A DNA stretch of 64,000 bases from Candidatus Eiseniibacteriota bacterium (GTDB lineage: Bacteria > Eisenbacteria > RBG-16-71-46). Shown piece by piece: positions 5,132 through 34,519 of this stretch. Position numbers and translations under genes: made by a program. The notes beneath the pieces are model-generated. The model did no database searches. It was not told where the DNA came from and saw only the letters and a program-made list of their open reading frames with translations. The DNA lies in assembly GCA_963707915.1 (NCBI GenBank), contig OY970178.1, positions 2,176,001 to 2,240,000 of the forward strand, read 5' to 3'. Positions within the stretch are counted from its first letter, which is position 1, and every line of letters begins with the position of its first letter.

Positions 5132-5935
5132 TCAGGCCTGCGCCACCCGTTCCAGCACGGCACGGATCCCGCGCAGCGTGTCGGCGCCCGAGCGGTGGCC
5201 GACGGCGAGCAGCGCGGCGACCGCCCGTCCCAGCACCTTCGCTCCCGGTTTCGGCAACGCCAGCGTCTCCAGCAGCCCCAGCACCGGCTCGGCGTAGAAA
5301 CCCGCCGCTGCGGCGTCGAGCATCTGCGCGGCGAGGCGCGTGGTCCGGGACGTGCCGCGCTCGAGTTCCGCGCTCAGCCGCCGGCGCAGGGTCGCCGCGG
5401 CGCCGGACGCCTCGCTCGCTGCGTCGAGCCCGGCCAGCACGCCCACGATCACGTCGTCGCCCGAGGGCGTGAGCCCCTCGCCCAGCCCGACGAGCGCCGC
5501 GAGCCCGCGGATCTCGCCGCCCGCCCGGAAGCGCGCCAGCGCGGCCTCGATCACCGGTTCGAACGGCCCGGCCGGCGGCGCCGCGCCCGCGTGCCGCGCG
5601 AGAGCGGCCGCCGATGCCGGCAGCGCGCGCAGCCGGCGCCGCAGCCGCAGCTCCACGACCTCGAGCCCGGCGAGTTCGATCTTCAGGGCCCCCACCTGGA
5701 TGACGCCCTGCGAGACGCGCAGCGGCGCGCCCTCGCAGATGCCCGCGAGCTCCGGCACGGCGAGCGGCACGGCGACCGCCCAGGGGTGCAGCGGCGTCTC
5801 CGCGGGCAGGAGTGCGACCAGCGGCCCGTCGTCCAGCAGCAGGTTCACGGCCCGCGCGTGGACCGAGACGACGGAGCCGCGCCGGTCGCCCATCAGCGCC
5901 TCGGCGGCGAAGGGTCCGGCGCGGCGTGCGCTCAT
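5132..5935 (-). CDS. DUF2877 protein (YahE/AllH family)
   Basis: GLGEGLTPSGDDVIVG and GHRSGAD motifs; context with FdrA and DUF1116. Confidence 0.85.
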   Translation of the reverse strand: MSARRAGPFAAEALMGDRRGSVVSVHARAVNLLLDDGPLVALLPAETPLHPWAVAVPLAVPELAGICEGAPLRVSQGVIQVGALKIELAGLEVVELRLRRRLRALPASAAALARHAGAAPPAGPFEPVIEAALARFRAGGEIRGLAALVGLGEGLTPSGDDVIVGVLAGLDAASEASGAAATLRRRLSAELERGTSRTTRLAAQMLDAAAAGFYAEPVLGLLETLALPKPGAKVLGRAVAALLAVGHRSGADTLRGIRAVLERVAQA

Positions 5936-6880: not shown

Positions 6881-8334
6881 TCAGGCCTGCGGGGCCGGTG
6901 CGCCGAGCGACTCTGCGAACGCGAGCAGCGCCTGGCGGAAGCACGCGATCGGCGGCTTCACCAGGCCGGCACCGACCATGCCGATGCCGGGCTGCTTGTG
7001 CGCGATGCCGGTGTTGACGACCGGCACGACGCCGCTCTCGACCACCTTGAGCAGGTCGATGCCGGACGCCGTGCCGCGGAAATCGAGCGCCGGGATCTTG
7101 TAGACCGGGTGCTCGGCGAGCGTGATGTCGTACATGCGACGGGTGTAGCCGAGCGCCTGCGCGGCGCTGCCGCCCACGAACTGGACGATGGCGGGCGCGG
7201 CGGCCATGGCCATGCCCCCGAGCCCGGCGGTCTCGGTGATGACCGAGTCGCCGATGTCGGGCGCGGCGTCGGCGGCGCCGAAGCCAGGCAGGTAGAGCCC
7301 GTCCACCATGGGCGCGGGAGCGGTGAACCAGCGGCCCGGCAGGGCCGACACCTGGATGCCGAAGTCGGTGCCGTTGCGCGCCATGACGCTGATCATCGAG
7401 TCGAGCGCGGGATGCCGGCCGCCGGGTCGAGCGAGCACTTGCTCGCCGCCATCGAGAGGTTGAGGAAGAAGTGATCGTTGCCGTCGAGGAAGCGCAGGAC
7501 CGCGGCGATGTCGTCCGTGGCCGCCCGGATGCCGACCAGGTGCGGCGCCAGCGTGCGGATGAGCAGCGAGGTGGCCGCGCGGTTGCGGTTGTGCACCTCG
7601 TCGCCCATCTGCAGCGCCTGGGCGATCACGTTGCGCAGGTCGAGCGGCCCGTGCGCGGCCAGCGCCTCGCGCAGCGCCGGGGCCAGCACCTGCTCCATCC
7701 AGCGCAGGCGGGTGAGCACCTCGTCGTCGTAGGCGCCGTAGCGCAGCACCTTGCCCAGCCCCTCGTTCAGCGTGGAGTAGGCGCGGTTGCCGAACGCCGT
7801 GTTCTCGAGGATCCAGACCGGCATCGAGGCGGTGACCACGCCGGCCATCGGCCCGACGGCGGCGTGGTGGTGGCAGGGCGCGAACGCGACCTTTCCCGAG
7901 GCGGCGAGCCGCGCGGCCTCCTCGGGCGTCCGCGCCAGGCCCTCGTAGACCAGCCCGCCCATCACCGCGCCGCGGGTCGGCCCGCTCATGCGCTCCCACT
8001 CGACCGGCGGACCGGCGTGGAGCACCAGGTCCTTGCGCATGCCGGGGACGACGTCGAGCGCGGTGCCGATGCCGACGATGGTCGGCCGCGCCGCCAGCAG
8101 CCGCTCGACCGACTGGCGGGTCGCCGCGGCGATGTCGGCGCGCACCGCGCCGTCCGCGCCCAGGCAGGCGTCGAGCGCCGCGAGCAGGGCGGGGTCGCCG
8201 CCCGCGGGCGGGCGCCAGTCCACGTCCACCGCGCTGCCTCCGGCGCTGCGCAGGTCGGCCGCGAACGAGGCCAGGCCGACGTTCACCACCGACAACTCCG
8301 CGCCGAAGAGCGCGAGCACCTTCTCGACGTTCAT
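6881..8334 (-). CDS. DUF1116 protein (YahG/YlbE-AllG family); one frameshift near 7400
   Basis: LHAGPP, PCHHHAAVGPMAG, LNEGLGKVLRYGA, MGDEVHNRN in one frame; MARNGTDFG, DIGDSVITET, NTGIAHK in the next. Confidence 0.88.
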
Positions 8335-9868
8335 CGCGCCGCCCTCCCCAGCACCGCCGCGGCGAACCGCGCGGCGCGCCGGTTGTCGGTCTCGACGGTG
8401 ACCCCGGCATCCGCGAGCCGGCGCACCTGCGCGTCGTAGTCCTGCGGGTCCCCGTCGCGTGCCCGTGACCGAGGCGATGGCCACCAGTTCGCGGCCGGGC
8501 GCGCGGCGCCGCGCCTGTTCCACGCCGGCCGCCAGCACGCCCGCCGGGTCCGGGTGCGAGCCGTAGCCGATCACGCAGTCGAAGAGCAGCACGCCGGCCG
8601 CCGCGTCGGCCATCTCGACCGCGAGCCGCTCGTTGCGCAGCCCGGGCTCGATCATCGGGTGCGGCCGCCCGCGCGTGAACACGTCGTCGCCGAGGTCGAG
8701 CAGGACGTGGCCGGCGACGGGCGCCACGCCGTCCACCCGCAGCGCGCCCCTCTTGTGCAGGTTCGAGCGCACCTCGAGCCCGGCGCGGGTCGAGCAGCGC
8801 GAGCGCCTCCTGGCCGGTGGTGCCCCCGCAGAAGAGCGCCTTGAGCGCCGCGCCCGGCCGCAGCAGGGCGGCCGCCGCCGCGACGCAGGACTCGTCCGCG
8901 ATCGCCGGCGGCGGTGCGGAGGCCAGGCCGCTGCGCCGGCACGCCAGCTCCGCCGCGTCGGCCAGCGAGTCGGCGAAGACGATCCCTCGGGCCGCATCCT
9001 CCGCGCGCGGAACGTCTCCGACGAAGTGGACCACGCACGGCTTGCGCGTGGCCGCCAGCGCGTCGACCACCCGCTGCGCCACCTCCGCCGCCGGCGGCTT
9101 CGAGACGACGACGATCACCTTCGTCTCCGGGTCGGCCGCGAGCGCCTCGATGCCGAGCAGCATCATCAGCCCGCCGACCTCGGCCGAGAGATCGCGCCCG
9201 CCCGTGCCGATGGCCTGCGAGACTCCGCCGCCCAGGCGGTGGATGACGCTCGAGACCTCCTGGATGCCCGTGCCCGCCGCGCCCACGATGCCGATCGGCC
9301 CGCGCCGCACGGCGTTGGCGAAGGCCAGCGGCCGGCCGCCCAGGATGGCGGTGCCGCAGTCGGGGCCCATCAGCAGCAACCCGCGCCCGGCCGCCTCCTG
9401 CTTGAGCGCGACCTCGTCGGCGAGCGACACGTTGTCCGAGAAGAGCATCACGTGCCGGCCCAGCGCGAGCGCGCGCCGCGCCTCGCGGGCGGCGTGCTCG
9501 CCGGGCACGGAGATGAGCACCAGGTTCGCCGCAGGGTGGGACGCGACCGCCGCCGCGAGCGACGACGGCCGGGCCTCCTCGCCCGCGCCGGCGTGCGACT
9601 GCGCCTTCAGCAGCCGCTCCAGCTCCGCCTCGACCGCCGCCGGCGAGTCCGCCGCGCCCTTCACCGCGATGAGCAGGTCGTTGGGCGTGGCGCTCGCCAG
9701 CTCGGCGCCGCCGTAGCCCTGCGCGCCGAGCAGGTCGCGGTTCTGCGGCGTGCCCATGGCGACCACCGCGTCCTCGACGCCCGCGAGGCCGCGCAGCGCC
9801 TGCGAGACGCGCATCAGCAGGACCGAGTCGTGATACGAGTCCCTGCGGACCAGGACGAAGGCGGCCAC
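8331..9868 (-). CDS. fdrA: Acyl-CoA-synthetase-like FdrA/YahF (AllF family); frameshifts near 8790 and 8455
   Basis: YHDSVLLM, LISVPG, FSDNV, MGPDCGTA, GTGIQE, GTGGRDL, LFCGGT, DLGDDVFTRGRPHPMIEP, GYGSHPDP; ATGA overlap with the DUF1116 gene. Confidence 0.88.
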
Positions 9869-9878
9869 GTCGCCCCCG

Positions 9879-12759
9879 CTACTTCCGGCTCGCGTCCGTC
9901 GCGGACCCGGCCGGCCGCGCCTTCGCCTCCGCGGCGCGCTTGAGCGTCAGGAAGACGCGCTCCGGATCGAGCGGCAGCTCGAAGAACTCGACGCCGGTGG
10001 CGTTCGCGACCGCGTTGCCCACCGCGCCCGGCACCGAGATCATCGGGTGCTCGGCCACGCCGCGCGCGCCGTAGGGCCCCTGCGGATGCGGCGTCTCGAC
10101 GAAGAACTGCCGCATCTCGGCCGGGATGTCCTTGGCGGTCGGGATCTTGTAGTCGGTGAACGAGTTGTTGAGCAGCCGGCCGTTCTGGAACACGAACTTC
10201 TCCATGACCGCCGAGCCCAGCCCCTGCACCACGCCGCCGATCACCTGCATGCGGCACTGCTGCGCGTTCAGCACCTTGCCCGCGTCGAAGGCCGAGACGA
10301 GCCGGAGCACGCGGATGTGGCCGGTGTCGGTGTCCACCTCGAGCTCGACGGCGTGCGCGCCGTAGGTCCAGTTGAGCGCCGGCAGCCCCTGGCCGGTCTC
10401 GCGGGTCGAGGTTGGTGAGGCCGGTCGCGATGTAGCGGCCCTTGCCGATCACCGGCCCGCCGATGCTGCTGCCGTCGGGGTAGGTGTAGCCCAGCACGAG
10501 CTGGCTGTAGTCGAGCGTGCGGGCGGGCTTGCCCTTCACCCAGACCTTGCCCTCGTCGCACTCGATCTGGTCGGGCGGGGCGTGCAGCGCCTGCCCGGCG
10601 ACATCGCGGATCTGGTCGAGGCACTCCTTCGCCGCCTGGATGACGGCGTTGCCGCCCATCACCGAGAAGCGGCTCGCCACCGTCTGCCAGTCGTAGGGCG
10701 TGTAGTCGGTGTCGCTGTCCCACGGCACGCGCACCTTCTCGAGCGGGAGCCGCAGCTCGTCCGCCGCGATCTGCGCGAGCGCGGTGTAGGTGCCCTGGCC
10801 GTAGTCCACGCCGCTCACCAGCACGTTGGCCGAGCCGTCGCCGTTGAACAGGATGGTGACCGAGCACGAGGTGTAGGTCGGCATGGCCGGCGCCTTGTGC
10901 AGCATCGCCACGCCCTTCGCCCGCACCTTGCCGGAGCCCGGCGCGACCGGCTTCGCCGCGCGCGCCTTCGGATCCCAGCCGATCGCCTCGCTGACCAGCC
11001 GCAGGCACTCCTCGGGCCGGCCGTGGCCCGTCGGTGAACGGCTCGCCGGTGATGGTGGTCTCGCCCACGCGCAGCAGGTTCTTGCGGCGGAACTCGACCG
11101 GGTCGATGCCCAGCGCGCGCGCCACCATGTCCATGTTGCGCTCGATGCCCCACAGCACCTCGAGGTGGCCGAAGCCGCGGTAGGCGGTGCCGTGGATCTT
11201 GTTGGTGTAGACCACCAGGGAGTCGAGTCTTGCAGTTCGGGCACCACGTAGGGCCCGGCGCCGGAGTAGGCCGCCGCGCGCCCGACGTTGACGCCGTAGT
11301 CGGCGAAGGCGCCCGCGTCCCACAGGTAGGTGAGGTCGAGCGCGGTGATGCGGCCGTCCTTCGTCACCCCGGTCTTGATGGTGCTCTGCAGGCCCTGGCG
11401 CGAGGGCAGGGTGTTGAACTCCTCCTCGCGCGTGGCGCTGATCTTCACCGGGCGCCCGCCGGCCGCCTTCGACAGGCAGTAGACCAGCGGCTCGAGGTGG
11501 ATGCCGGCCTTGCCGCCGAAGCCGCCGCCGACGTAGGGCACCCGCACGCGCACCTTGCTCGGGGGCCATGCCGAAGGTGCGGCAGAACAGCGTGCGCACG
11601 GTGAACGGCGACTGGGCCGAGGTGATGATCTCGACCTCGCCGTCGGCCCGCGCGGTGGCGATGGCGACGTGCGTCTCCATCGGCACGTGCTGGACCGGCG
11701 GGTTCTGGAAGCGCGAACTCGAACACGCGGTCCGCCTCGGCCATGCCCTTCTCGACGTCGCCCTTGCGGATCTTCTGGTGGTGGGCGGTGTTGCGGCCCG
11801 GCTGCGGGAAGAACACGCCCTTCATCCACGAGTAGTCCGCCAGGCCGGGGTGCACCTGCGGCGCGCCCTCCTTCAGCGCGGCGTGCACGTCGAGCACCGG
11901 CTCCAGCACCTCGTAGTCGATCTCGATCGCCAGCGTGGCGAGCTTGGCCTGGATCCAGGTCTCCGCCGCCACCGCCGCCACCGCCTCGCCCTGGTGGTGC
12001 ACCACGCCGCGGGCGAGGATGTCCTTGTCCTCCATGTAGAGCCCGAGCTTGTAGGGCAGGTCGGCGCCGGTGAGCACCGCCTTCACCCCCGGCATCGCCT
12101 TCGCCTTCGACACGTCGATGCGCCGGATGCGCGCCGAGGGGTGCGGCGAGGTGAGGATGCGGCCGTGCAGCATGCCCGTCCAGCACCATGTCGTGCACGA
12201 ACGTCGCCGAGCCCGTCACCTTGGCCGCGGCGTCCACGCGGTTGACCTCGCCGCCCACGTAGGGCGCGGTGGGCGCCGCCTTCGCGCGGTAGTTCCCCTT
12301 CGCCACCGCCTCGACCGCTTCGATGATGGGCTGGTAGCCGGTGCAGCGACAGTAGTTCCCCGAGAGCGCCTCGACGATCTCGTCGCGCGTCGGGTTGGGC
12401 TTGCGCTTCAGCAGCGCGCGCGCGGAGGCCAGCATGCCCGGCGTGCAGAAGCCGCACTGGATCGCGCCGTGGTCCACGAACGCCTGCTGCAGGGCGGAGA
12501 GCGTGCCCGGCTCGCCGTTCTCGGCCTCGGCGGTCTCGATGACCGCGCCGTCGGCCTCGACCGCGAACACCAGGCAGGAGTTCACCGGCTTGCCGTCCAG
12601 GATCACCGTGCACAGCCCGCACTCGCCGATGTAGCAGCCCGACTTCACGCTGTGCTGGTGCAGGTCCTCCGACAGCAGCTGGTGCAGCGTGCGGTCGGCC
12701 GGGACCTCGAGCGTCGAGGTCTCGCCGTTCACCGTCAGGGTGATGCGGTGGAGGCTCAT
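9879..12759 (-). CDS. Xanthine dehydrogenase-family Mo-hydroxylase: 2Fe-2S subunit fused to molybdopterin-binding subunit; about 6 frameshifts
   Basis: GCYIGECGLCTV and QCGFCTPG...CRCTGY Fe-S motifs run in frame into RVDAAAKVTG; later segments carry GGGFGGK, AYRGFG, GQGTYT, TDYKIPT and GARGVAE (catalytic Glu). Confidence 0.88.
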
Positions 12760-13608
12760 GACGGCCTCCCCGTCGCCGAGCAGCCGGCGCGCGAGCCGGC
12801 GGCACAGCACGGCGGTCATCTCGCGCCGGTACTCGGCCGAGGCCCGCACGTCGTCGATCGGCAGGATGTGCTCCAGGGCCAGCGCGGCGAGGCGCTCGCC
12901 CACGTCCTTCGGGTCCGACCGGGGCCCCACCCCGGCGAGCGCCGGCACCAGCGCCGGCCGCACCGCGCACGAGCCGATCGCCACGCGCAGCGTGCCCGCG
13001 ACCGGGTCCCAGGCGGCGGCCGAGTTCACGATCGCCAGGTCGTGCCCGTACGAGCGCTTGATCTTGTCGAACGCGCTGGTCAGCCCCGCCGGCCGGCTTC
13101 GGCACGACCACCGCCGTCACCAGCTCGCCGGGGGCGAGCGCGGTCTGCTTGACGCCCAGGAAGAAGTCCGCGAGCGGCGCCTCGCGCGTCCCCTGCGGGC
13201 CCGCGACCCGCAGCCGTCCGTTCAGCACCAGCAGCGGCGGGGCGGTGTCCATGCAGGGCGAGGCGTTCGAGAGGTTCCCGGCGACGGTGGCCCGCCAGCG
13301 GATCTGCAGCGAGCCGATCGCCTCCGCGCCCTCCGCGAGCGCGGTGAAGGCCTCGCGGATGCGCCGTCCTCGGCCACGTCCTGCACCCGCACGCAGGCGC
13401 CGATCTCCAGCTCGCCCGCCGGCGTCCAGGTGATCCTCCCCAGCTCGGGGATGCGCTTGATGTCCACCAGCACGTCGGGTCGCGGACCGCCGCGCAGCGC
13501 GATCATCAGGTCGGTCCCGCCGGCCAGGATCCTCGCGCCCGCCGGCCCGGCCAGCAGCGCGGTGGCCTCGGCCACCGTGCCCGGTCTCTCGTAGCGGAAG
13601 CCACTCAT
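12760..13608 (-). CDS. FAD-binding (medium) subunit of XDH/CODH-family enzyme; frameshifts near 13362 and 13080
   Basis: YERPGTVAEA, LAGGTDL, VDIKRIPEL, RATVAGNLSNASP, PIDDVRASAEYRR; no stop before the Fe-S ATG in this sequence. Confidence 0.85.
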
Positions 13609-13693: not shown

Positions 13694-14033
13694 CTAGACG
13701 GCGGTGAAAACCAGCCCGGTGATGTCCTTGCCGTTGGTCTCGCGCACCTTGCCGACGTGCGCCCGCACGCGCGCGCCGGTCTTCGGCTCGGCGATCTCCA
13801 GCCGGCCGGTCGCCCGCACCCCCATGTCCAGCTCGACGATGCCGAGCGTGACGTAGAGCTGGGCGTAGTCCAGCGGCAGCGCGTAGACGCGCGTCCAGGT
13901 CAGCAGCTTGCCCTCGCCCTCGACCGGGACCGGCTCGAACTGGGTGCCGCGGCAGGACGGGCAGTAGAAGTGCGTCGGATACGACGAGCTTGCCGCAGTT
14001 CTTGCACTTGGCGGCTTCGACGTTCATGGCCAT
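13694..14033 (-). CDS. DUF35 Zn-ribbon/OB-fold protein; frameshift near 13983
   Basis: KCKNCGK...YPTHFYCPSC...GEGKLLTWT...LGIVELD after frame correction; adjacent to a thiolase-fold gene. Confidence 0.85.
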
Positions 14034-14034
14034 G

Positions 14035-15222
14035 TCACACCCCCCGCTTGAGCACGGTGGCGACGACGTTGTTGCCGAAGCCGCCGAAGTTCACGGCGAA
14101 GCCGTGCTTCGGCTGGTTCGGCACCTGGTAGTCGCCCGCCTCGCCGCGCAGCTGCAGCACCAGCTCCACGATCTGCGACACGCCGGTGTTGCCCACGGGA
14201 TGCCCGCGCGACTTGAGCCCGCCCGACGGGTTGATGGGCAGCTTCCCGCCGATCTTCGTCTCGCCCCGCTCGAGCGCCTTGTGGCCCTCGCCCTTCTTGA
14301 AGAAGCCGCACTCCTCGCTCTCGGCGATCTCGAGGATGGTGAAGGCGTCGTGCAGCTCGGCCACGTCGATGTCCTTCGGCTTGAGCTTCGCCATGGCGAA
14401 CGCCCGCTCCGCCGCCATCCGCACCGCGGTCAGCTCGGTCGGGTCGGGCCGGTCCTGCACCGCCTGCGAGTCGGTCGCCTGGCCCATGCCGGCGATCAGC
14501 ACCGGCGTCTTCTTGAACTCCTTCACCATGTCGGCCGGGGCCAGCAGCACCGCCGAGGAGCCGTCGCTCACCGGGCAGCAGTCGAAGAAGCGCAGCGGCT
14601 CGGCGATCCACGGGTTGTTGTTGAGCGCGTCCGGCCCGGTCAGGATGCCCTCCATCGTGACCGGGATGCGCAGGTGCGCCTTCTTGTTCTTCGCGCCGTT
14701 GAGGTGGTTCTTGATCGCCACCATCGCCAGGTGCCGGGCCTCGACCCCGTAGCGCTCCATGTACAGGCGCGTGAACATCCCCGCCAGCGCGGGCAGCGTC
14801 ACGCCGTAGACGTACTCGGCGTAGCGGTGCGAGAGGTACGAGACGAACTCGGTCGCCTCGAAGTTGTTGACCTCCTGCATGCGCTCGCCGCCGCACACCA
14901 GCACCAGGTCGCAGTAGCCCGAGGCCACGGAGTGCACGCCGTGCTTGATGGCCGAGGCGCCCGAGGCCGGGCCGTTCTCGATGGTCTCGGAGACCGCGTG
15001 CGGGTACAGGTTCATCCGGTCGACGAGCCCGCTGGACAGGCCGGCCATGCGGTTGTTGCGCGGGGCGCCCATGTTGGCGACGTAGACCGCGTCGATCTTC
15101 CGCTCGCCGATGCCGGCGTCCACGATGGCGTCGTGCGAGGCCTCGCACATCATCTTGAGCAGGCTCCACTGGGCCCGCCCGAACTGCGTCGAGCCCACGC
15201 CGACGATGGCCACGTCCCTCAT
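14035..15222 (-). CDS. Thiolase-fold protein (SCP2/archaeal type) lacking the nucleophilic Cys
   Basis: VAIVGVGST, DCCPVSDG, AELHDAF, INPSGGLKSRGHPVG; ENGPASG replaces the usual ENACASG. Confidence 0.9.
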   Translation of the reverse strand: MRDVAIVGVGSTQFGRAQWSLLKMMCEASHDAIVDAGIGERKIDAVYVANMGAPRNNRMAGLSSGLVDRMNLYPHAVSETIENGPASGASAIKHGVHSVASGYCDLVLVCGGERMQEVNNFEATEFVSYLSHRYAEYVYGVTLPALAGMFTRLYMERYGVEARHLAMVAIKNHLNGAKNKKAHLRIPVTMEGILTGPDALNNNPWIAEPLRFFDCCPVSDGSSAVLLAPADMVKEFKKTPVLIAGMGQATDSQAVQDRPDPTELTAVRMAAERAFAMAKLKPKDIDVAELHDAFTILEIAESEECGFFKKGEGHKALERGETKIGGKLPINPSGGLKSRGHPVGNTGVSQIVELVLQLRGEAGDYQVPNQPKHGFAVNFGGFGNNVVATVLKRGV

Positions 15223-15968
15223 ATGCGGGCCTCCAGCGTGTTCTCGATCTGGGTCAGCATCACGCGCAGGTCCGGCTCGCGCAGCGGGTAGGACGAGGCC
15301 AGCAGCTCGGCGGAGACCGGGCGCGTGCCCGTGACCAGCCGCGACTTGGCCTTGAAGTAGGTGTCGCGGGTCAGCACCCAGGCCGGCGCGCCGCCCAGCT
15401 CGTGCTGCACCTCGAACTTCTTGTCGAGCGGGTACTCGATCATCCAGCGACGGTGGCCGATCGGGCTCTCGGCCACGATCCAGACCTCGTCCTGGCCCAG
15501 GTACTCGATGTGGTGCTCCATCTTCGAGGCGAACAGGTGCGAGCCCACCCGCAGCCCGCGCTTGAGCGTCAGCGTGTGGAACGAGACGCCGTGCTTCTCG
15601 TCGAACAGCCGGCCGTTCACGATGCCGGCCAGCACGCCGTCGATCACCCCGACCAGGCAGTACTCGTTGCGCACGCGGTAGGTCTTCCAGCCCAGCAGCT
15701 CGGCGAACAGGCGGGCCGAGACGATGTCGTAGAAGTCGCGGCTCAGCCAGGAGAGCGGCTGGATGACCTTGAGCATCAGGTCCACCTCGTCCACCGAGGC
15801 CTGGCGCACGACCATGGTCTCGCCGCTCGCGAGCAGGACGGCCTTGGGGGGATAGGGGGCCATGGGCAGCACCGGTGGCCGCAACATGGCCTCGAGTTCG
15901 TCGATCATGCGCTCCTCCTCGGAGGTGAGGTACTCGTCGGCATCCCAGTCGTAGACAGGGGGGCTCAT
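15219..15968 (-). CDS. Putative GNAT-like N-acyltransferase / conserved hypothetical protein
   Basis: 249-aa ORF with strong GC3 codon bias; CLVGVIDGVLAGIV and TLKRGLRVGSHLF resemble GNAT strands and motif A; ATGA overlap with the thiolase. Confidence 0.65.
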   Translation of the reverse strand: MSPPVYDWDADEYLTSEEERMIDELEAMLRPPVLPMAPYPPKAVLLASGETMVVRQASVDEVDLMLKVIQPLSWLSRDFYDIVSARLFAELLGWKTYRVRNEYCLVGVIDGVLAGIVNGRLFDEKHGVSFHTLTLKRGLRVGSHLFASKMEHHIEYLGQDEVWIVAESPIGHRRWMIEYPLDKKFEVQHELGGAPAWVLTRDTYFKAKSRLVTGTRPVSAELLASSYPLREPDLRVMLTQIENTLEARI

Positions 15969-16231: not shown

Positions 16232-19200
16232 TCAGCGAACGATCACGGCCCGGGCCGTCAACCTGCGGCTGCCCCTTGCCAGGCGCACCAGGTACACGCC
16301 CGGTGCCAGCGAGCGTCTCTCTCCCAACTGCACCACGTGACTGCCGCCACCGAGCGGTCCGACCTCCCGCACCGCCACCCGGCGTCCGGCCAGGTCGAAC
16401 GCCTCCAGCCGCGCCGGCGCGGCATCGGGCAGCGAGAACGCCACCGCCAGCGCCACCGTCGCCGGGTTCGGGCACACCCCGGCGAGCGCCAACTCCGCGA
16501 CGCGCGGCACGTCCACCCAGGTCTCGCCCGCGAAGACCTCCCGTCCCTGGTCGAGCACGCCGAGCCGGTAGCCGTATCGCGTGCCCGGGGTCACCTGCCG
16601 GTCCTCGTAGACGACCAGCCCGGTCCCGTCCGCGGAGACGCTGCCAAGCGCGCTCCACGCTGCGTCGGCCACGCGCCGGTACACCGTCACGGCGCCACCA
16701 TCGCCGCCCGCCGTGTACCACGTCAGGCGCACCCGGTCCGGGTCGGCCAGCGCGCTCACCAGCGAGAGCAGCACCGGCGTGGACACGTCGTGGAGGTTGT
16801 GAGAGCAGGTGACGTGCTGCGGCAGGCCGCGCAGCGTCACGCGGAAGACCAGCGGGTTCAGGCCGTTCGCCGCGCTGTCCGGCACCGGGACCGAGAGGGG
16901 GACCGGCGCCGTGCCGTCCGCGCCGACCACGACGCTCCCCGAGACCGGGAAGCCGGGCCAGTCGCGTCCGCTCGCGAGCGTGTAGTCGGCGGTCTGCGCG
17001 AAGGCGTAGGGGTTGGTGACGCCGTAGCCGAGGTCACTGCTCGCTCCCGCCGTCCACACGACGTCCGCAGGGCAGGTCACGCCGGCCAGGGCGGGCGCGC
17101 CCCAGGTCAGCGACCGGATCTCGCTGCATGGGTTCGCGACCCAGCCGCCGACGAGCATCATGCGATCGCGCAGCGGATCGTAGATCGCGCTGTGGCCGTA
17201 CCGCGCGTTCGGCGGTGAGCCGGAGGGAGTCAGTTGCGTCCACTCGGGCGTGCCCGCCAGCGAGAGGGCCCAGACGTCGTCGAGGGGGTGCTCGCCGCCG
17301 CCCCCGAACACCACCATGCGGTCGCGCACCGGGTCGTAGATCGCGCTGTGGCACATTCGCGCGCCCGGCGGCGTGCCGGTGGGCGTCAACTGCATCCAGG
17401 CCGGCGCGCCGGCCAGCGAGAGGGCCCAGACGTCGTTGAGGCGGTAGTCGCCGTAGCCCCCGAACACCACCATGCGGTCGCGCACCGGGTCGTAGATCGC
17501 GCTGTGGCACATTCGCGCGCCCGGCGACGTGCTGTAGGGAGTCAGGTCCGTCCACCTGGGTGTGCCCGCCAGTGACAACGCCCAGACATCGTCGAGGCGG
17601 ATGTCCCCGCTGTCGTCGCCCCCGAACACCACCATGCGATCGCGCACCGGGTCGTAGATCGCGACGAGGCCGACCCGGCCGACCGGGGGCGCGCCCGTGG
17701 GCGTCAGTCTCGTCCAGGCCGGGGTGTCCCCCATGGACAGTGACCATACGTCGTTCCGGAATTCGGCCGATCCGTCGAGGCCCCCGAACACGACCATTCG
17801 CTCGCGCACCGGGTCGTAGATCGCGCTGTGGAGGCACCGCGCGCTCGGCCGCGTGCCCGTCGGTTCCAGCGCCGTCCAGGTCGGCTTGTCCGCCGGCGAC
17901 AGCGACCAGACGTCATTGAAGGTGGCCGAGGCCCCATCACCTCCGAACACGACCATGCGGTCGCGCACCGGATCGTAGATCGTGCTGTGGAGGAACACCC
18001 CGGGCTGGGAATGGGAACCGGTCCAGGCCAGCGTGTCCGCCAGCGACAATGCCATGACGTCGTTGTAGTAGGCGTACCAAGGGGAGAGCCTGGCGACGCC
18101 CGCGAACACCAGCATGCGGTCGCGCACCGGATCGTAGATGGCGCCGTGACCGGCCCGCGCACCCGGCAACGTGCCGTCGGGTGCCAGCGCCGTCCACGCC
18201 GACGTGCCTGCGAGTGGGAACGCCCAGGTGTCTTCGAGCAGGCCGTCGAGGCCCGTACCCCCGAACACGATCATGCGGTCACGCACCGGGTCGTACACGG
18301 CGCTGTGGGCAAGCCGTGCGCCCGGCGAGGCTCCGTTCGGCGACAGCATCGTCCAGGCCGCCGTGCCCGCCAGCGGCAATGCCCAGGCGTCCCCGTAGGA
18401 GTAGTTCGCAGGGTAGGCGCCGGCGCCACCCCCGAACACCACCATGCGGTCACGCACCGGGTCGTAGATCGCGCTGTGGAGGTACCGTCCGCCCGGCGTG
18501 GTCGGGGAGTTCGGCAGCGCCGTCCAGCCCGGCGTGCCCCCCAGTGACAGCGCCCAGACGTCGTTGTACCAGCGCCAATCGTCATAGCCCCCGAACACCA
18601 CCATGCGGTCGCGCACCGGGTCGTAGATCGCGCTGTGCCCGTAACGCGCGTTCGGCAGCGAACCGGACGGGGTCAACAGCGTCCACTCGGTCGTGTCCCC
18701 CAGCGACAACGTCCAGACGTCGTTGCGGCGGTAGCCGTCGAAGCCTCCGAACACCACCATGCGGTCGCGCACCGGGTCGTAGATGGCGGTGTGGGAATAG
18801 CGCGCGCTCGGCGGCGTGCCGTCGGGCGTCAACTGGGTCCAGGCCGGCGCGCCCGCCAGCGTGAGCGCCCAGACGTCGTTGCGGGCGGAACCGTCGTAGC
18901 CCCCGAACACCACCATGCGGTCGCGCACCGGATCGTAGACCGCGCTCGGGTAGTCCCGCGCGCTCATCGGGCTGACCGGGATGATTCCCGGGTCGGGCTC
19001 GGACCACGAACCGTCGTCCGCCGCCGGAGCGCGGGTCGGGGGGGCCGGGCGGGTGTCGGTCGCAGGAGGACGGAGCGCCGACGGATCGCTCCCGCGCGCC
19101 AGGCGCATCATGAGTGCGCGCTGCCAGCGCGGCAGCAGCGTGTCGGCCGCTGCTAGCGCCAGTCCCTGGCGCGCTTCGGGCGCCAGCGACGGCACGCCCG

Positions 19201-19300
19201 GGAGTCCGGGCTGGCCGGAAGCGGCGACCGGGACCGCCAGGAAGAGGAGGAGGAGCGCGAGGACCCGGGCGGGGGCGCGGAACGGATGCGGCGGCCTCAT
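16232..19300 (-). CDS. Secreted Kelch-repeat beta-propeller protein with C-terminal FlgD/T9SS-like tail
   Basis: Signal peptide; 12 repeats of HSAIYDPVRDRMVVFGG...DVWxL...W; C-terminal PNP...LEAFDLAGRRV...PGVYLVRL. Confidence 0.9.
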   Translation of the reverse strand: MRPPHPFRAPARVLALLLLFLAVPVAASGQPGLPGVPSLAPEARQGLALAAADTLLPRWQRALMMRLARGSDPSALRPPATDTRPAPPTRAPAADDGSWSEPDPGIIPVSPMSARDYPSAVYDPVRDRMVVFGGYDGSARNDVWALTLAGAPAWTQLTPDGTPPSARYSHTAIYDPVRDRMVVFGGFDGYRRNDVWTLSLGDTTEWTLLTPSGSLPNARYGHSAIYDPVRDRMVVFGGYDDWRWYNDVWALSLGGTPGWTALPNSPTTPGGRYLHSAIYDPVRDRMVVFGGGAGAYPANYSYGDAWALPLAGTAAWTMLSPNGASPGARLAHSAVYDPVRDRMIVFGGTGLDGLLEDTWAFPLAGTSAWTALAPDGTLPGARAGHGAIYDPVRDRMLVFAGVARLSPWYAYYNDVMALSLADTLAWTGSHSQPGVFLHSTIYDPVRDRMVVFGGDGASATFNDVWSLSPADKPTWTALEPTGTRPSARCLHSAIYDPVRERMVVFGGLDGSAEFRNDVWSLSMGDTPAWTRLTPTGAPPVGRVGLVAIYDPVRDRMVVFGGDDSGDIRLDDVWALSLAGTPRWTDLTPYSTSPGARMCHSAIYDPVRDRMVVFGGYGDYRLNDVWALSLAGAPAWMQLTPTGTPPGARMCHSAIYDPVRDRMVVFGGGGEHPLDDVWALSLAGTPEWTQLTPSGSPPNARYGHSAIYDPLRDRMMLVGGWVANPCSEIRSLTWGAPALAGVTCPADVVWTAGASSDLGYGVTNPYAFAQTADYTLASGRDWPGFPVSGSVVVGADGTAPVPLSVPVPDSAANGLNPLVFRVTLRGLPQHVTCSHNLHDVSTPVLLSLVSALADPDRVRLTWYTAGGDGGAVTVYRRVADAAWSALGSVSADGTGLVVYEDRQVTPGTRYGYRLGVLDQGREVFAGETWVDVPRVAELALAGVCPNPATVALAVAFSLPDAAPARLEAFDLAGRRVAVREVGPLGGGSHVVQLGERRSLAPGVYLVRLARGSRRLTARAVIVR
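17100..18965 (-). repeat. 12 tandem coding repeats of about 155-170 bp (Kelch blades)
   Basis: Recurring GAACACCACCATGCGGTCGCGCACCGGGTCGTAGA core on the + strand; 17301-17370 and 17457-17526 are identical. Confidence 0.9.
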
Positions 19301-30018: not shown

Positions 30019-31854
30019 CTACCGGCCCAGCAGCTCCAGGATGCCGGTGGTCATCCACGGCATGTAGGTGATCAACAGCACGCCGATGCCGAGGATGAGC
30101 AGGAAGGGCAGGACGTGCCGGTAGAGCTCGGGCAGGGGCTTGTCGAATCGCGACGACGACAGGAAGAGGTTGAGTCCGACCGGGGGGAACAGGAACCCCA
30201 GCTCGAGGTTCGCCAGGAACACGACGCCGAGGTGGATGGGGTTGATGCCGAACGCGGCCCCGATCGGGGCCACCAGCGGCGCCAGGATGATGATCGCCGA
30301 GTAGATCTCGAGCACGCTGCCCAGCACCAGCAGCACGACGTTGAGGACCAGCAGGAAGACGACCGGCGAGTGGATGTGGGTCCGCACGCCGTTCAACAGC
30401 GCCATCGGGATCTGCGCGTCCACCAGCCAGCTGGTGAGCCCCATCGCGCTCGCCAGCAGGATGAGCACGGCGCCGCACAGCACGCCGGCCTTGAGCAGCA
30501 CGCCCGGCAGGTCGCGCACCGGGTGGATGTCGCGCTTGATGAAGCATTCGACCACGATGGCGTAGGCGAAGGCCACCGCCGCGGCCTCGACCATGGTGGC
30601 CATCCCCGTGGCGAACAGCACCACCACGACCGCCGGCACCGACAACTCCCACACCGCGGCCCAGCCCGAGACCAGCGCCTCCTTGAGCGAGAACGACTGC
30701 CGCGGCGCGCCGACCTTGCCGCCGACGCGCATGCCGTAGAGCGCGACGATCAGCACCAGCAGCGTGCCGGGCAGCAGCCCCGCGAGGTACAGCGAGTCGG
30801 CGGGCACGCTGGCCACGACCGCGTAGAGGATGACCGGCAGGCTGGGCGGGAACAGCAGGCCGAGGCTGCCCGAGGCGGTCACCAGCCCGAGCGAGAACCC
30901 CTCGGGATACTTCTCCTCGCGCAGGATCGGGTAGAGCAGCCCGCCCAGCGCCATGATGGTGATGCCCGAGCCGCCGGTGAAGGTGGTGAACAACGCGCAC
31001 ACCGCGGCCACCAGCACCGCCACGCCGCCCGGCATCCAGCCGAACAGCGCGCGGAAGAAGCGCACCAGGCGCAGCGAAGCGTGCGACTCGGCCAGCACGT
31101 AGCCGCAGGCGGTCAGCAGCGGGATGGCCGGCAGGGTCGGCGAGAGCATCAGCCGGTAGACCTCCGCCGTCACCGACGCGACCGGCACCGCGTCCTTGAA
31201 GAACAGCAGCAGCGCGATGCCGCCCATGGCGACGAAGACCGGCGCGCCGACCAGCGCGGCCAGCACGATCACCGCCAGCACCGGCACCCAGATCGCGTGC
31301 CCGAGCGCGGGGACGGCGCCGAGCCCGAAGGCGGAGGCCATGGCGGCGAACGCCAGCGCCCGGCCCTTCCAGCCGTCCGAAGCGCCCCAGGCCAGCCGCA
31401 CCGCGATGAGCGCGAGCGCGACCGGCATGACGCACTCGCTGATCCAGACCGGCAGCCCGATCGCCAGCACCTCGCCCTGCGCGCGGTCGGCGAGCACCAC
31501 GCCCCAGGCCGAGTACGCCAGCACGCCGCAGACCGCGGCCGCGACCGCGGAGGAGAACAGGCGCGCGACGTCCCGCGCCTTCGCGTGCCCGAGCGCCTCG
31601 GCGGTCGAGAGGGTGAGGTGCCGGCGCTCGCGCGTCGCCAGCAGGCCGCCGAGGAAGGCGAGCCAGAGCGTCAACTGCGCGCGGTAGGTGGCCGAGCCCG
31701 GGACCGAGAAGCCGCCCAGCGGGCGGCCCACGGCGTCGATGAGCGGCAGCGCCATCGAGAGCAGGAAGGCGACCACCAGCACCCCGCCCTCGAGGCTCCC
31801 CAGGGCCGCGAGCACGCGCCCCGGCCGCGGCTGCGGCGGCGAAGCTTCAGGCAT
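30019..31854 (-). CDS. dctM: TRAP transporter fused small+large permease (DctQM/TatQM)
   Basis: DctQ-like N-terminus, then LPAIPLLT, TTFTGGSG, GSLGLLFPPSLPVILY, LELGFLFPPVGLNLF. Confidence 0.9.
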   Translation of the reverse strand: MPEASPPQPRPGRVLAALGSLEGGVLVVAFLLSMALPLIDAVGRPLGGFSVPGSATYRAQLTLWLAFLGGLLATRERRHLTLSTAEALGHAKARDVARLFSSAVAAAVCGVLAYSAWGVVLADRAQGEVLAIGLPVWISECVMPVALALIAVRLAWGASDGWKGRALAFAAMASAFGLGAVPALGHAIWVPVLAVIVLAALVGAPVFVAMGGIALLLFFKDAVPVASVTAEVYRLMLSPTLPAIPLLTACGYVLAESHASLRLVRFFRALFGWMPGGVAVLVAAVCALFTTFTGGSGITIMALGGLLYPILREEKYPEGFSLGLVTASGSLGLLFPPSLPVILYAVVASVPADSLYLAGLLPGTLLVLIVALYGMRVGGKVGAPRQSFSLKEALVSGWAAVWELSVPAVVVVLFATGMATMVEAAAVAFAYAIVVECFIKRDIHPVRDLPGVLLKAGVLCGAVLILLASAMGLTSWLVDAQIPMALLNGVRTHIHSPVVFLLVLNVVLLVLGSVLEIYSAIIILAPLVAPIGAAFGINPIHLGVVFLANLELGFLFPPVGLNLFLSSSRFDKPLPELYRHVLPFLLILGIGVLLITYMPWMTTGILELLGR

Positions 31855-31860
31855 CTTGGC

Positions 31861-32922
31861 TCAGCGCGCGCCGCCGGTCTTCTGGCGGTAGGCGTCGCGC
31901 GCGCGGCGCGCCAGGTCGAGGATGTCGGGCGGCACGCGGATGCCCTTCATCCCGTTGGCGAACTCCTCCGCCGCCTGGCGGAACTGGGTGGCGCTCGCCC
32001 CGCTCACGACGTTCACCCGGAGCCCGCGCTTCTTCATCTCGGCCACGGCGGTGGTGTCCTGGCGCGGCACCTCGACCTCGAGCTTGTGCTCGAGCTGGCG
32101 GCAGGACGCCATGATCCGTGCGCGGTCGGCCTCCGAGATCTTCATCCACGCCTGCTTGGTCATGACCAGCCCGCCGACCAGGGGCGCCAGCCCCATGCCC
32201 ACCAGGTTGGGCGTCATCCGGTACCACTGCAGCGTGAGCCCGAGCAGCGGCGTGGTCGGGTAGGCGTCGATCATCCCGGTCTGCAGGGCGGTCATGATGT
32301 CGGTGGCCGCGAGCGGCACGGGCTGGAAGTGGAGGTCCCGCCAGAGCGCCACCATCTGGTCGTCGCCCGCCCAGACGAACATCTTGGTCTTGCGCAGCCC
32401 CTCCGCCGACTCGACCGGCTGCTTGGTGAAGAAGTACACCCAGCCGCCGTGCCCCCAGGCCAGCAGCACGAAGCCCTTGGCGTCGAGCCGCTGCTTCAGC
32501 ACCGGCGTCAGCTGGTCGAGCGTGGCGTAGAGCTCGGGGTAGGAGGTGAAGAACATCGGGATGTTGAAGACGTTGAACGCCGGGTCGATGTTGGCCAGCC
32601 CCGCGGTGGTGACCGCCGCGGCCTGCAACTGGCCGATGCGCATCTTGCGAACCAGGTCCGGCTCGTCACCCGCCACGCCGCCCGGGTAGACGCGCAGCAC
32701 GACCCGCCCCTGCGTTCCGGCGGTCCACTGGGCGCCCATGTCGCGCATCGACTTGTCCCAGACCGACCCCTCGGGCACCAGCGTGGCGAGCTTGACGACC
32801 TGCGGCTGCGCCACCGCGGGCGCGGGCGCCAGCGTGGCCACGGCCAGCGCGAGCGCGGCGGCGCACAGCGCGGCCGGGACGGCGGAACGGACGGAGGATC
32901 TCACCTGCGGGACATGTCCCAT
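31861..32922 (-). CDS. dctP: TRAP substrate-binding protein (DctP/TatP)
   Basis: Signal peptide; VKLATLVPEGSVW, YPGGVAGDEPDLVRKMRIGQLQ, ALQTGMID. Confidence 0.9.
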   Translation of the reverse strand: MGHVPQVRSSVRSAVPAALCAAALALAVATLAPAPAVAQPQVVKLATLVPEGSVWDKSMRDMGAQWTAGTQGRVVLRVYPGGVAGDEPDLVRKMRIGQLQAAAVTTAGLANIDPAFNVFNIPMFFTSYPELYATLDQLTPVLKQRLDAKGFVLLAWGHGGWVYFFTKQPVESAEGLRKTKMFVWAGDDQMVALWRDLHFQPVPLAATDIMTALQTGMIDAYPTTPLLGLTLQWYRMTPNLVGMGLAPLVGGLVMTKQAWMKISEADRARIMASCRQLEHKLEVEVPRQDTTAVAEMKKRGLRVNVVSGASATQFRQAAEEFANGMKGIRVPPDILDLARRARDAYRQKTGGAR

Positions 32923-33884
32923 CACTTCTCCTGGGTCGGCGTGGTGTCGGGGGGAGCGGAGTCGTCGACGAAGAGCTCGTCCTCGTGCGCGAGCAGGTCG
33001 CGCGCCTTGCGCTGCAGGACGATGGTGACCAGGCGCTGGGAGGGGTCGCGGTCCGGGTCGAACTCGAGCGAGCGATTCAGCAGGCGCTCGAACTCCTGCC
33101 GGTCCTGCCGGAGCACCGAGATGGTCGTGGCCAGCGTCACGTACGGCGAGGCCTTGGTGTCGTGCGAGAGCTCCACCGCCCGGGCGAAGTGCGCGCGCGC
33201 CCGCACCTCCGAGCCGCCCATCACCTCGGGCAGCGCGTCGAGCAGGATGAGCGCCTCGTGGATCGCGCCGCCCTCGTAGCCCTCGTCGAGCGCGAGCCCG
33301 CGCTCCATCAGGGCCCGGATCGCCGGCAGGTCGGCCAGCAGCTCCGGCCGGTCCTTGCCGAGCGAGATGGCCGAGCCCCACGAGGCCGCGGTCCAGTAGA
33401 GCATCGGCAGGTCGCGCTTCTGGATGCGCGCCGCGGCCTTCACCGGATCGAGCTGGAGCTCGGCGGAGATGCCCCGGCAGCGCTTCTCGAGTCCCCGCAG
33501 CCCGTAGCCACGGGCCCGCAGGTAGAGCTTGAGGGCGCGCTCGTGCAGGCGCGTGGCCCGGGCGTAGTCGCTGTTCACCAGCACGTCGCCTTCGGCCTGC
33601 ACGAACGCGTAGGAGTACTGCGTGAAGCCCTTGCACAGGGTGAGCAGCAGCCCTTCGTGGTCGGGCACCACCGCGAGCAGCGACTCCATGGTCTTCAGGC
33701 CGAACGGGAGCGCGTCGCGCACCAGCTCGGGGTCCTCGTCGGTGCCGTAGACGTCCACGCCGCTGGTGAGCGAGTTCGCCACGCTCTTGACCGCCCAGCG
33801 CTTGACCGAACACGAGGCGAGCGCCAGGGGCAGCGCGAGGAGCAGGAGGAACGCGAGGAACCGACGCGGTGCACGGAGGGACAT
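32922..33884 (-). CDS. TRAP transporter TatT component lipoprotein
   Basis: Lipobox LASC; DPELVRDALPFGLK, YSYAFV, MGGSEVRARAHF; first gene of the tatT-P-QM operon. Confidence 0.88.
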   Translation of the reverse strand: MSLRAPRRFLAFLLLLALPLALASCSVKRWAVKSVANSLTSGVDVYGTDEDPELVRDALPFGLKTMESLLAVVPDHEGLLLTLCKGFTQYSYAFVQAEGDVLVNSDYARATRLHERALKLYLRARGYGLRGLEKRCRGISAELQLDPVKAAARIQKRDLPMLYWTAASWGSAISLGKDRPELLADLPAIRALMERGLALDEGYEGGAIHEALILLDALPEVMGGSEVRARAHFARAVELSHDTKASPYVTLATTISVLRQDRQEFERLLNRSLEFDPDRDPSQRLVTIVLQRKARDLLAHEDELFVDDSAPPDTTPTQEK

Positions 33885-33890
33885 GCCCGC

Positions 33891-33920
33891 ACGCTAGCGC
33901 GGGGCCGGAGACGGGGTCAA
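33891..33920 (-). promoter_or_regulatory. Sigma70-type promoter directly before tatT (leaderless)
   Basis: TTGACC-N18-TAGCGT, 6 nt before ATG 33884; no SD sequence. Confidence 0.55.
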
Positions 33921-34093
33921 GCGCGGGGAGTCGAGCGCCAGGCAGGCGGTGCCCGGAGGAGACGGTGGGCGAGCGCATGGTGCCTCGGCTCGTCCACCGT
34001 CTCCTCCGGGCACCGCAGCCGCACGCACCCGGCGGACCCGGTGCGCGGAGCCCCGACCGGCGGCATCGTCGCCGCGCGGCAGGGCGAGTCCCA

Positions 34094-34519
34094 TCACCGC
34101 GGCAGCGTCCCCATCGCCAGGCGCGCCAGCCACAGCACGGCGAGCGCGGCGGCGTTCGCGGCGAGCACGCGCGGGATCCAGCGGTCGGGGCGCGTGCGCA
34201 GGCGGCCCGCGAGCCAGGCCGCCCACAGCGCCCACGCCCCCAGCAGTTGAAGCACCAGCGCCGCCGCCCACGGGTGTAGCGCCAGCGAATCCCTCCACGT
34301 GCCGCGCGCGAGCAGCGCCAGCGCGCGGGTGACGCCGCAGGTCGGGCACGCGATCCCGCCCCCGCGCCGCAAGGCACACAGCGGCCCGCCGGTGCCGGCG
34401 CTCGAAGCGGCGAGGGCCGCCCAGCCGAGCGCCAGCACCGCGCCCGCCACGAGCCACGACAGCCACGCGCCGCGCCGGCTCCCGACCAGCGCGAGCGCGT
34501 GATCCGGCGCGAGGCTCAC
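34094..34519 (-). CDS. DUF2752-domain membrane protein (in frame with the upstream ORF as sequenced)
   Basis: PLCALRRGGGIACPTCGVTRA...SLALHP motif; candidate GTG start at 34519. Confidence 0.7.
   Translation of the reverse strand: MSLAPDHALALVGSRRGAWLSWLVAGAVLALGWAALAASSAGTGGPLCALRRGGGIACPTCGVTRALALLARGTWRDSLALHPWAAALVLQLLGAWALWAAWLAGRLRTRPDRWIPRVLAANAAALAVLWLARLAMGTLPR

Follow-up and report, generated by a model that had tools for sequence, protein, structure and literature searches.

What reaction is open to a thiolase-fold protein that carries proline in place of its catalytic cysteine? The question is raised by a gene at 14035..15222 (minus strand) of a 64,000-nucleotide stretch of a Candidatus Eiseniibacteriota genome (contig OY970178.1, positions 2,176,001 to 2,240,000; the window, below), whose 395-residue product we call ENGP after its active-site motif. 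Our answer, to which we give a probability of about 60%, is that ENGP, as catalytic subunit, and a small DUF35 partner act as a biotin-independent malonyl-coenzyme A (CoA) decarboxylase, probably accepting methylmalonyl-CoA as well, which would resemble the KSQ loading ketosynthases in its mode of action and end an oxygen-independent, oxidative pathway of pyrimidine degradation. We infer the reactions, the substrates and any complex named below from residues, conservation, folds, gene linkage and gene replacement.

Proline at the nucleophile site

The protein has an SCP2/archaeal-type thiolase fold, and its nucleophile loop reads E79-T-I-E82-N-G84-P85-A-S87-G, with G84 encoded by GGC and P85 by CCG (14968-14970). 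This is what the original prediction, made by a model from the DNA letters alone, had read, and its argument that a single-base error is insufficient also holds, CCG being three changes away from any Cys codon. In alignments to the archaeal thiolase structures 7YVY and 6ESQ, Pro85 falls on the nucleophilic Cys. That close homologues might keep Cys, a possibility raised at the outset, is contradicted by the family as a whole: Pro85 is present in 119 of the 120 top homologues (64-96% identity), the exception being a fragment without the region, and ENGPASG is read in 80/80 GTDB loci, which rules out both a sequencing error and a private inactivation. Record titles of these 80 loci include Eisenbacteria, Chloroflexota, Ignavibacteria, Actinomycetota, Verrucomicrobiota, Riflebacteria, Elusimicrobiota and others; the nearest named relatives of the window's gene are from Candidatus Eisenbacteria, and mean column identity across phyla is 73%.

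We counted residue invariance over 84 aligned ENGP sequences. Pro85 occupies the Cys position of the CxS loop in every one, and H291 of HDAF (291-294) and H341 of GHP (340-342) are likewise invariant, so that the His of HDxF and the His of GHP are both kept. The acid/base Cys of thiolases, found in HDCF or near the C-terminus, has no conserved counterpart, since A293 is invariant and position 377, in VNFGG (377-381), is Cys in only 46 of the 84. These three motifs are as originally described, but HDAF is not diagnostic, since the P. furiosus thiolase 7YVY combines it with a Cys nucleophile. Nor is there support for the suggestion that the DCC motif supplies a clade-specific replacement nucleophile: C215 varies (Cys in 57/84), and C216, although invariant, is common to ordinary SCP2 thiolases, the zebrafish SCP2 thiolase having the same CCP motif beside a normal Cys. 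S87 is invariant too; both it and the CP motif are also found in Cys-type thiolases.

The structure model of ENGP (predicted local distance difference test, pLDDT, 90.9) lies closest to 6ESQ (Z 60.2, root-mean-square deviation 1.6 over 385 residues), which confirms the thiolase fold. All 25 NCBIfam families listed for the protein score below cut-off (best PRK06064, 408.7 against 420). The ENGP family is therefore real, conserved and uncharacterised. It spans many phyla and is currently labelled acetyl-CoA acetyltransferase, though no acyl-enzyme could form; our proposal would give it a concrete function.

A fixed trio and its counterpart in sister lineages

The ENGP gene is the middle member of a fixed GNAT-fold/thiolase-fold/DUF35 unit. 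The predicted pairing with DUF35 is borne out by a zinc-ribbon/OB-fold gene (PF01796, about 112 residues) at 13694..14033 (minus strand), which contains one extra base near 13985. This base is missing in the related locus L002 and in relatives' contigs spanning the site in four of four sequencing runs, none of which represents the strain itself (best share 0.29). Single-base shifts also break up the adjacent Xdh, FdrA and AllG genes, and the disruptions are therefore most likely assembly errors; a carbamate kinase gene elsewhere in this genome is broken in the same way. A relative's 5351-nt contig from an RNA library covers Xdh, DUF35 and thiolase but is no proof of transcription.

The third member, protein X (249 residues, start uncertain; 15219..15968, minus strand), has a stop codon that overlaps the thiolase ATG. 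Pfam, NCBIfam and PDB sequence searches gave no identification. Its model (pLDDT 89.1) has a GNAT fold by Foldseek (E 1e-6) and by superposition (Z 12.0, root-mean-square deviation 2.7 over 138 residues), S129, H131, T132, H144 and H189 are invariant, and we take RGLRVG to resemble GNAT motif A. MCD and CurA are absent among the 50 matches listed for the model, which excludes nothing. Of the 80 ENGP loci, 79 carry the GNAT gene and 77 carry DUF35. In three of the four cases where one of them is missing, the contig ends within about 160 bases; in the fourth, L080, a stretch of 561 bases gives no match to DUF35. Gene order varies between loci with the trio unbroken, and five further relatives carry the same set. 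ENGP thus defines a conserved clade tied to this operon, as had been supposed. Nitrilase-family genes occur near the trio in 5/80 loci. A 1022-residue Kelch-repeat protein with a signal-like N-terminus, encoded upstream of the trio in the window (16232-19300, minus strand), is not conserved among loci.

A sister GNAT subfamily, 35-37% identical to the trio GNAT and with 31 near-invariant residues in common, forms a branch of its own in the GNAT tree (115 loci whose partner is labelled; thiolase clade 77, biotin clade 38). We collected 80 metagenome loci of this subfamily to learn what takes the place of the thiolase. They share genes of the pathway described below (cyclase 59, molybdenum subunit 15, AllG 12, barbiturase 6), and none contains a thiolase. 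Parts of a biotin-dependent (methyl)malonyl-CoA decarboxylase, counted as MmdA-like carboxyltransferase, biotin carrier, OadG, OadB or a fused AccDA-like protein directly 3' of the GNAT gene, are present in 23/80 sister-GNAT loci, including 14 of the 37 that span at least 6 kb, versus 0/80 ENGP loci. The exchange is most direct in two loci that represent the same operon with either occupant: L224 reads Xdh-cyclase-GNAT-thiolase-DUF35-AllH, and L237 reads Xdh-MmdA-OadG-biotin carrier-OadB-cyclase-GNAT-AllH. That a biotin-dependent decarboxylase occupies the role where the thiolase is missing favours malonyl-CoA as the substrate of ENGP.

The same pattern is seen within a single order, which we chose since a Chloroflexota-wide sample was too sparse (3/251). 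Among 301 unselected genomes, whose incompleteness limits comparisons of presence and absence, the GNAT family occurs in 38: 22 with an ENGP-class thiolase, 15 with the sister GNAT only and one (G779) with a broken GNAT alone. Twenty of the 22 thiolases are full-length matches of at least 658 bits and two are partial, the motif having been read directly in two. In the sister-only genomes the best thiolase matches reach at most 350 bits; 14 were read, none of them ENGP, and one genome had no match. OAD_beta, the pump subunit of the biotin-dependent decarboxylase, is found in 15/15 sister-only genomes, at most 8 kb from the GNAT gene in 11, compared with 8/22 ENGP genomes.

Two further arrangements of the sister GNAT were seen. 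L148 and L149 carry a tandem pair of sister-GNAT genes. A paralogous cluster (L132, L221, L223, L225, L226, L238) consists of sister GNAT, FdrA, AllG and a long cyclase that appears to be doubled, in this order; a more distant Xdh (~28%) usually comes next, and a Bmp-type binding protein of an ATP-binding cassette transporter is sometimes present. In G905 and G943, about 21 kb separate this cluster from the trio. It may handle a second pyrimidine.

A proposed oxidative pyrimidine pathway around the trio

The trio stands in an operon whose other genes, all on the minus strand, encode the FAD (flavin adenine dinucleotide) subunit (12805..13608, three pieces), 2Fe-2S subunit (12290..12750) and large subunit, Xdh (9882..12270, five pieces), of a molybdenum hydroxylase, homologues of FdrA/AllF (8440..9868, two pieces) and AllG (DUF1116; 6884..8320, two pieces), with the ends of these five approximate and the pieces due to single-base shifts, then a cyclase-family metal hydrolase (PF04199; 5952..6870) and a homologue of AllH (DUF2877; 5132..5935). 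Among the 80 ENGP loci, the neighbours are FdrA (51), AllG (49), a molybdenum subunit (48), cyclase (42), AllH (40) and an AtzD-family gene (7), and pathway genes lie within 10 kb of the trio in 35 of the 37 loci with full flanks. Identity of FdrA and AllG to their E. coli counterparts, AllF/YahF and AllG/YahG, is about 39-46%, and FdrA carries CoA-binding and CoA-ligase domains.

Judged by score, the AtzD-family neighbour is a barbiturase, since it reaches 545 bits against 5HWE but no more than 313.5 against cyanuric acid hydrolases. Whole-genome searches of 50 of the 80 trio genomes found barbiturase in 9, the cyclase orthologue in 37, both in none and neither in 4, and barbiturase and cyclase likewise do not overlap in the sister-GNAT loci. 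The nine barbiturase genomes probably form one actinobacterial group, hence one event, with a second in the sister-GNAT branch. Since barbiturase stands in for the cyclase in two lineages, and the two are mutually exclusive, we propose that the cyclase is a barbiturase analogue; barbiturase itself was not found in the window's own genome. For both permeases tested from beside the trio (2/2), the best score is to uracil permease, though below the cut-off, and cytosine-deaminase-like genes adjoin the sister GNAT. Together, the linkage of molybdenum hydroxylase, AllFGH homologues and cyclase or barbiturase suggests a route from uracil through barbiturate and ureidomalonate to malonamate.

Barbiturase is reported to yield ureidomalonate, and the textbook oxidative route finishes as malonate and urea (PMC3758960). 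E. coli AllFGH converts oxalurate and phosphate to oxamate, a dead end there, and carbamoyl phosphate (PMC11326118). Ureidomalonate is oxalurate with one additional CH2, and malonamate would hence be the product of the AllFGH homologues. Among 400 sampled genomes of the actinobacterial phylum, we found 16 further barbiturase loci, of which 12 have carbamate kinase, 9 FdrA, 8 AllG and none the trio (three of these regions being short contigs). In such loci the AllFGH homologues probably act on ureidomalonate as well, and the malonamate formed would be metabolised no further, as is the case for oxamate in E. coli. Actinobacterial barbiturase without the trio is commonly accompanied by a PucR-type regulator, an NCS2 permease, carbamate kinase and AllH-FdrA-AllG (L105, L108-L110, L112-L114, L116, L117).

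Carbamate kinase is near 1/80 trio loci compared with 12 of the 16 trio-less barbiturase loci, and the idea that the trio replaces it was dropped, because 48/50 trio genomes have the kinase elsewhere (2/14 controls). The 48/50 figure is not specific support for the pathway either, since 11 of the 13 carbamate kinase regions that we read hold an ornithine transcarbamoylase (OTCase)-family or YgeW-like carbamoyltransferase gene; several such regions of trio genomes also hold threonine-synthase-like pyridoxal phosphate enzymes and amidohydrolases. Two other groups of genes in the window, in which no link to the trio was seen, are the de novo pyrimidine genes pyrF, pyrB, pyrI, pyrD and pyrK-like (40512-44937, minus strand) and a TRAP-T transporter (TAtT, DctP, DctQM; 30019-34515, minus strand).

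In the pathway that we propose, the molybdenum enzyme would oxidise uracil to barbiturate (and thymine correspondingly), the cyclase, or barbiturase, would open the ring to give ureidomalonate, and the AllFGH homologue would convert ureidomalonate and phosphate to malonamate and carbamoyl phosphate. Protein X would then make malonyl-CoA from malonamate, the least certain step, for which ureidomalonate or malonamoyl-CoA are alternative substrates, and ENGP would decarboxylate malonyl-CoA to acetyl-CoA and CO2. Methylmalonyl-CoA derived from thymine is a plausible further substrate. Immediately upstream of the trio, one locus (L051:5826-9025) carries methylmalonyl-CoA mutase, epimerase and a nitrilase-family amidase.

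Decarboxylation of malonyl-CoA reportedly requires just enolate stabilisation at the thioester and room for CO2 (PMC3701320); in ketosynthases two His do this, and KSQ domains, which lose the Cys, become decarboxylases (PMC7327777). By analogy, His291 and His341 of ENGP would bind the carbonyl group of the thioester and stabilise the enolate. Thiolases use the backbone NH at the nucleophile position for the tetrahedral intermediate, and Pro lacks this NH; Pro85 would thus remove both the nucleophile and the NH, such that no acyl-enzyme could form. The likely role of DUF35 is to bind CoA; it may also tether the GNAT, allowing decarboxylation to pull the amide-to-thioester step. Starting from malonamate, a reverse N-acyltransferase reaction costs approximately 10-20 kJ/mol and decarboxylation is downhill by about as much, and this offset would explain the tight coupling of the trio. 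Parallels for such coupling are described for the archaeal thiolase/HMG-CoA synthase complex (HMG, 3-hydroxy-3-methylglutaryl; PMC12960953) and a DUF35-mediated complex of Sulfolobus (bioRxiv 2024.07.05.601840). A bolder version, which we regard as possible though somewhat doubtful, is a three-protein complex that converts malonamate and CoA to acetyl-CoA, NH3 and CO2 without ATP or biotin, channelling malonyl-CoA from the reverse-GNAT step into a new decarboxylase derived from archaeal thiolases. If real, this complex would complete an oxygen-independent, energy-yielding degradation of uracil across many uncultured phyla, of which sister lineages would use a variant that pumps Na+. Of what was first suggested for the protein, a CoA-ester substrate and a nitrogen-catabolic setting are supported, and the non-thiolytic lyase survives in the wide sense that decarboxylation cleaves a C-C bond without thiolysis of an acyl-enzyme. 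No support was found for C-N cleavage or for oxamoyl- or 3-hydroxyacyl-CoA as substrates; gene replacement points to malonyl-CoA.

Several observations weigh against a decarboxylase in a uracil pathway. No cultured carrier, assay or knockout of ENGP was found, and the clade nearest to it contains a probable BktB-alpha, which is reported to be an active thiolase. No decarboxylase lies near the GNAT gene in 57/80 sister-GNAT loci; among the 37 that span at least 6 kb, this holds for 23. OAD_beta is present in 8/22 ENGP genomes of the order sample, always on a contig other than that of the trio, and an MmdA-like gene lies elsewhere in the genome to which the window belongs. Both types of GNAT occur together in G905 and G943, where they belong to paralogous clusters, and in G779 no thiolase was found to accompany a broken trio-type GNAT. 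The split between thiolase and biotin-dependent decarboxylase amounts to one deep event and one nested Mmd-to-AccDA swap, and Fisher values on this co-occurrence therefore overstate it. Finally, the molybdenum subunit is only about 28% identical to those of other actinobacterial barbiturase loci and has 4-hydroxybenzoyl-CoA reductase as its best solved match; given these weak matches, uracil as substrate rests on the links to barbiturase and permeases.

Different assignments of the chemistry were also considered. Protein X could itself be the decarboxylase, leaving the thiolase/DUF35 pair as a scaffold or to another step such as removal of the amide nitrogen. GNAT-fold malonyl-CoA decarboxylases do exist, MCD and CurA having a His-Ser/Thr dyad in this fold (PMC3701320), which is a further point against ENGP in that role; X has the invariant Ser, Thr and His residues listed above, and its family also occurs without the thiolase. 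A biotin-dependent decarboxylase beside the thiolase-less GNAT would then be redundant, however, given the near-invariant residues that the two subfamilies have in common, and the thiolase, unlike a scaffold, keeps both His and a high column identity; we consider this assignment unlikely. Slightly less credible still is a pathway in which FdrA, with its CoA-binding and CoA-ligase domains, makes malonamoyl-CoA and ENGP cleaves C2-C3 without an acyl-enzyme, giving acetyl-CoA and cyanate, carbamate or carbamoyl-CoA. The scarcity of carbamate kinase at trio loci would fit, but the kinase is encoded elsewhere in nearly all trio genomes, and a carboxyltransferase requires a free carboxylate, such that its replacement of ENGP favours malonyl-CoA. 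Purified E. coli AllFGH, moreover, is active in an assay for which the source text lists no CoA (PMC11326118).

ENGP might instead remain a thiolase or acyltransferase like BktB, acting through Ser87, Cys216 or direct ternary attack and channelling acetyl- or propionyl-CoA. Its sister clade, a 38% identity, common pocket loops and the invariance of S87 and C216 are compatible with this, as is the report of BktB as a Ser-His-His thiolase with an OB-fold subunit (PMC7137286). The Ser of BktB, however, sits at the Cys position itself, where ENGP has Pro, S87 and the CP motif are not peculiar to ENGP, and the exchange with a decarboxylase is left unexplained, which makes retained thiolase activity quite improbable in our view. 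We attach similarly little weight to the idea that the operon degrades another N-heterocycle (alloxan, dialurate, or thymine only), with the trio acting on another C3 CoA ester. The molybdenum enzyme and cyclase lack a close characterised relative, a paralogous cluster of the same gene families exists and the carbamate kinases mostly adjoin OTCase- or YgeW-like genes; against this, barbiturase replaces the cyclase twice, uracil-type permeases adjoin the trio and cytosine-deaminase-like genes adjoin the sister GNAT.

We found no description of the trio or of the proposed route in searches limited to open-access literature. The malonyl-CoA decarboxylase proposed here would supply the missing lower half of oxidative pyrimidine degradation, and the pathway as a whole a cyclase-family barbiturase analogue and a second AllFGH-type substrate.

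Comparison with known systems

At the nucleophile position, the 150 best representatives have Cys (88), Ser (20) and, besides the query, Pro (11). In a tree of 64 thiolase-fold sequences, from which solved structures were left out, the ENGP clade is sister to a Ser clade that holds a thiolase of H. mediterranei plasmid pHM500 (FastTree 0.99; in a fast IQ-TREE run, 92.1 by the Shimodaira-Hasegawa-like approximate likelihood ratio test and 1 by the approximate Bayes test, aBayes); the grouping of all 12 ENGP sequences as one clade is weakly supported (37.6/0.7), as is that of the Cys-less sequences taken together (69.9/0.72). Two records give the label 'Halobacteria archaeon' to a distant ENGP protein (P0124 cluster, 47% identity). 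A second Cys-less Pro group of archaeal type (ETGP, ENAP, ESAP, ESGP; P0130, P0139, P0140, P0159, P0272) and Ser proteins of 500-540 residues (ETAS; P0136, P0165, P0188, P0195, P0200) were also seen.

The pHM500 protein, WP_004060618.1, is presumably HFX_6004, BktB-alpha, as it is encoded by the fourth gene on the plasmid and a small overlapping gene follows. Haloarchaeal BktB and PhaA are reported as Ser-His-His thiolases that require an OB-fold subunit (review PMC7137286), and BktB is probably the nearest characterised kin of ENGP. This Cys-less thiolase/DUF35 pair with thiolase function, probably of the sister group, was missing from the precedents of the original prediction. ENGP shares with it 38% identity, the absence of a nucleophilic Cys, both His, the pocket loops and an overlapping DUF35-like gene, the DUF35 protein being 39% identical over 88 residues to the H. 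mediterranei partner. It differs in having Pro rather than Ser at the nucleophile position (ENGPASG versus DQTSSSG) and HDAF rather than HDMF, and BktB/PhaA serve polyhydroxyalkanoate synthesis; the GNAT beside H. mediterranei bktB is divergent and has no similarity to X (probability 0.5%). Loss of Cys alone, as BktB illustrates, does not abolish thiolase function, and it is Pro together with the gene swap that carries the case for a new reaction.

The archaeal thiolase/DUF35/HMG-CoA synthase complex (6ESQ, 6ET9) and 7YVY offer the best structure match, with 37-41% identity, a DUF35 partner and a third coupled gene, but keep the Cys nucleophile, and the third gene here encodes a GNAT instead of HMG-CoA synthase. 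Ltp2, Sal, PhlC/MucB and BbsB also combine an SCP2-type fold with a DUF35 partner (Z 48.9-56.2). PhlC and BbsB retain the Cys nucleophile; a C88S PhlC-type entry is listed among the structure matches of the ENGP model. Ltp2 and Sal have a Tyr base in YDHF/YDCY (PMC12329534), where ENGP has the His of LHDAF, and MucB has lost HDxF (PMC12960953). An aldolase of the Ltp2 type, as first envisaged, is thus disfavoured, Ltp2 and Sal also matching less well (Z 48.9-49.1) than archaeal thiolases (60.2). By its defining residues, ENGP falls outside the acyl-enzyme thiolases, the Ser-His-His thiolases and the Ltp2/Sal aldolases.

With regard to the pathway, the Rhodococcus oxidative route (barbiturase, ureidomalonase) has its counterpart in the barbiturase orthologue of some trio genomes, whereas here the cyclase usually takes the place of barbiturase and, in contrast to both Rhodococcus and E. 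coli AllFGH, GNAT and decarboxylase appear to recover the carbon. The Na+-translocating methylmalonyl-CoA decarboxylase (MmdA, biotin carrier, OadG, OadB) has the same operon role, beside the sister GNAT, but is of unrelated fold, biotin-dependent and coupled to a Na+ gradient, while ENGP is a soluble protein whose loci encode no biotin partner. Loss of Cys with malonyl decarboxylation has been described for the SCP2-thiolase-like protein of T. brucei (TbSLP), whose activity is weak (kcat 0.005 per s as cited in PMC12329534); it has YDCF, no DUF35 and 24% identity to ENGP. The KSQ loading ketosynthases are the closest functional parallel, being members of the thiolase superfamily that have lost Cys, kept two His and decarboxylate malonyl groups, although they carry Gln at the Cys position and act on acyl carrier protein in the loading module of polyketide synthases, and ENGP, with Pro, is a stand-alone SCP2-type protein and not one of them. 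If our proposal is correct, decarboxylation would join thiolysis, condensation, aldol cleavage and Friedel-Crafts acylation among the reactions of thiolase/DUF35 pairs, and a Cys-to-Ser thiolase and a Cys-to-Pro non-thiolase, standing as sister clades, would make a clean case of a change of reaction within the thiolase fold.

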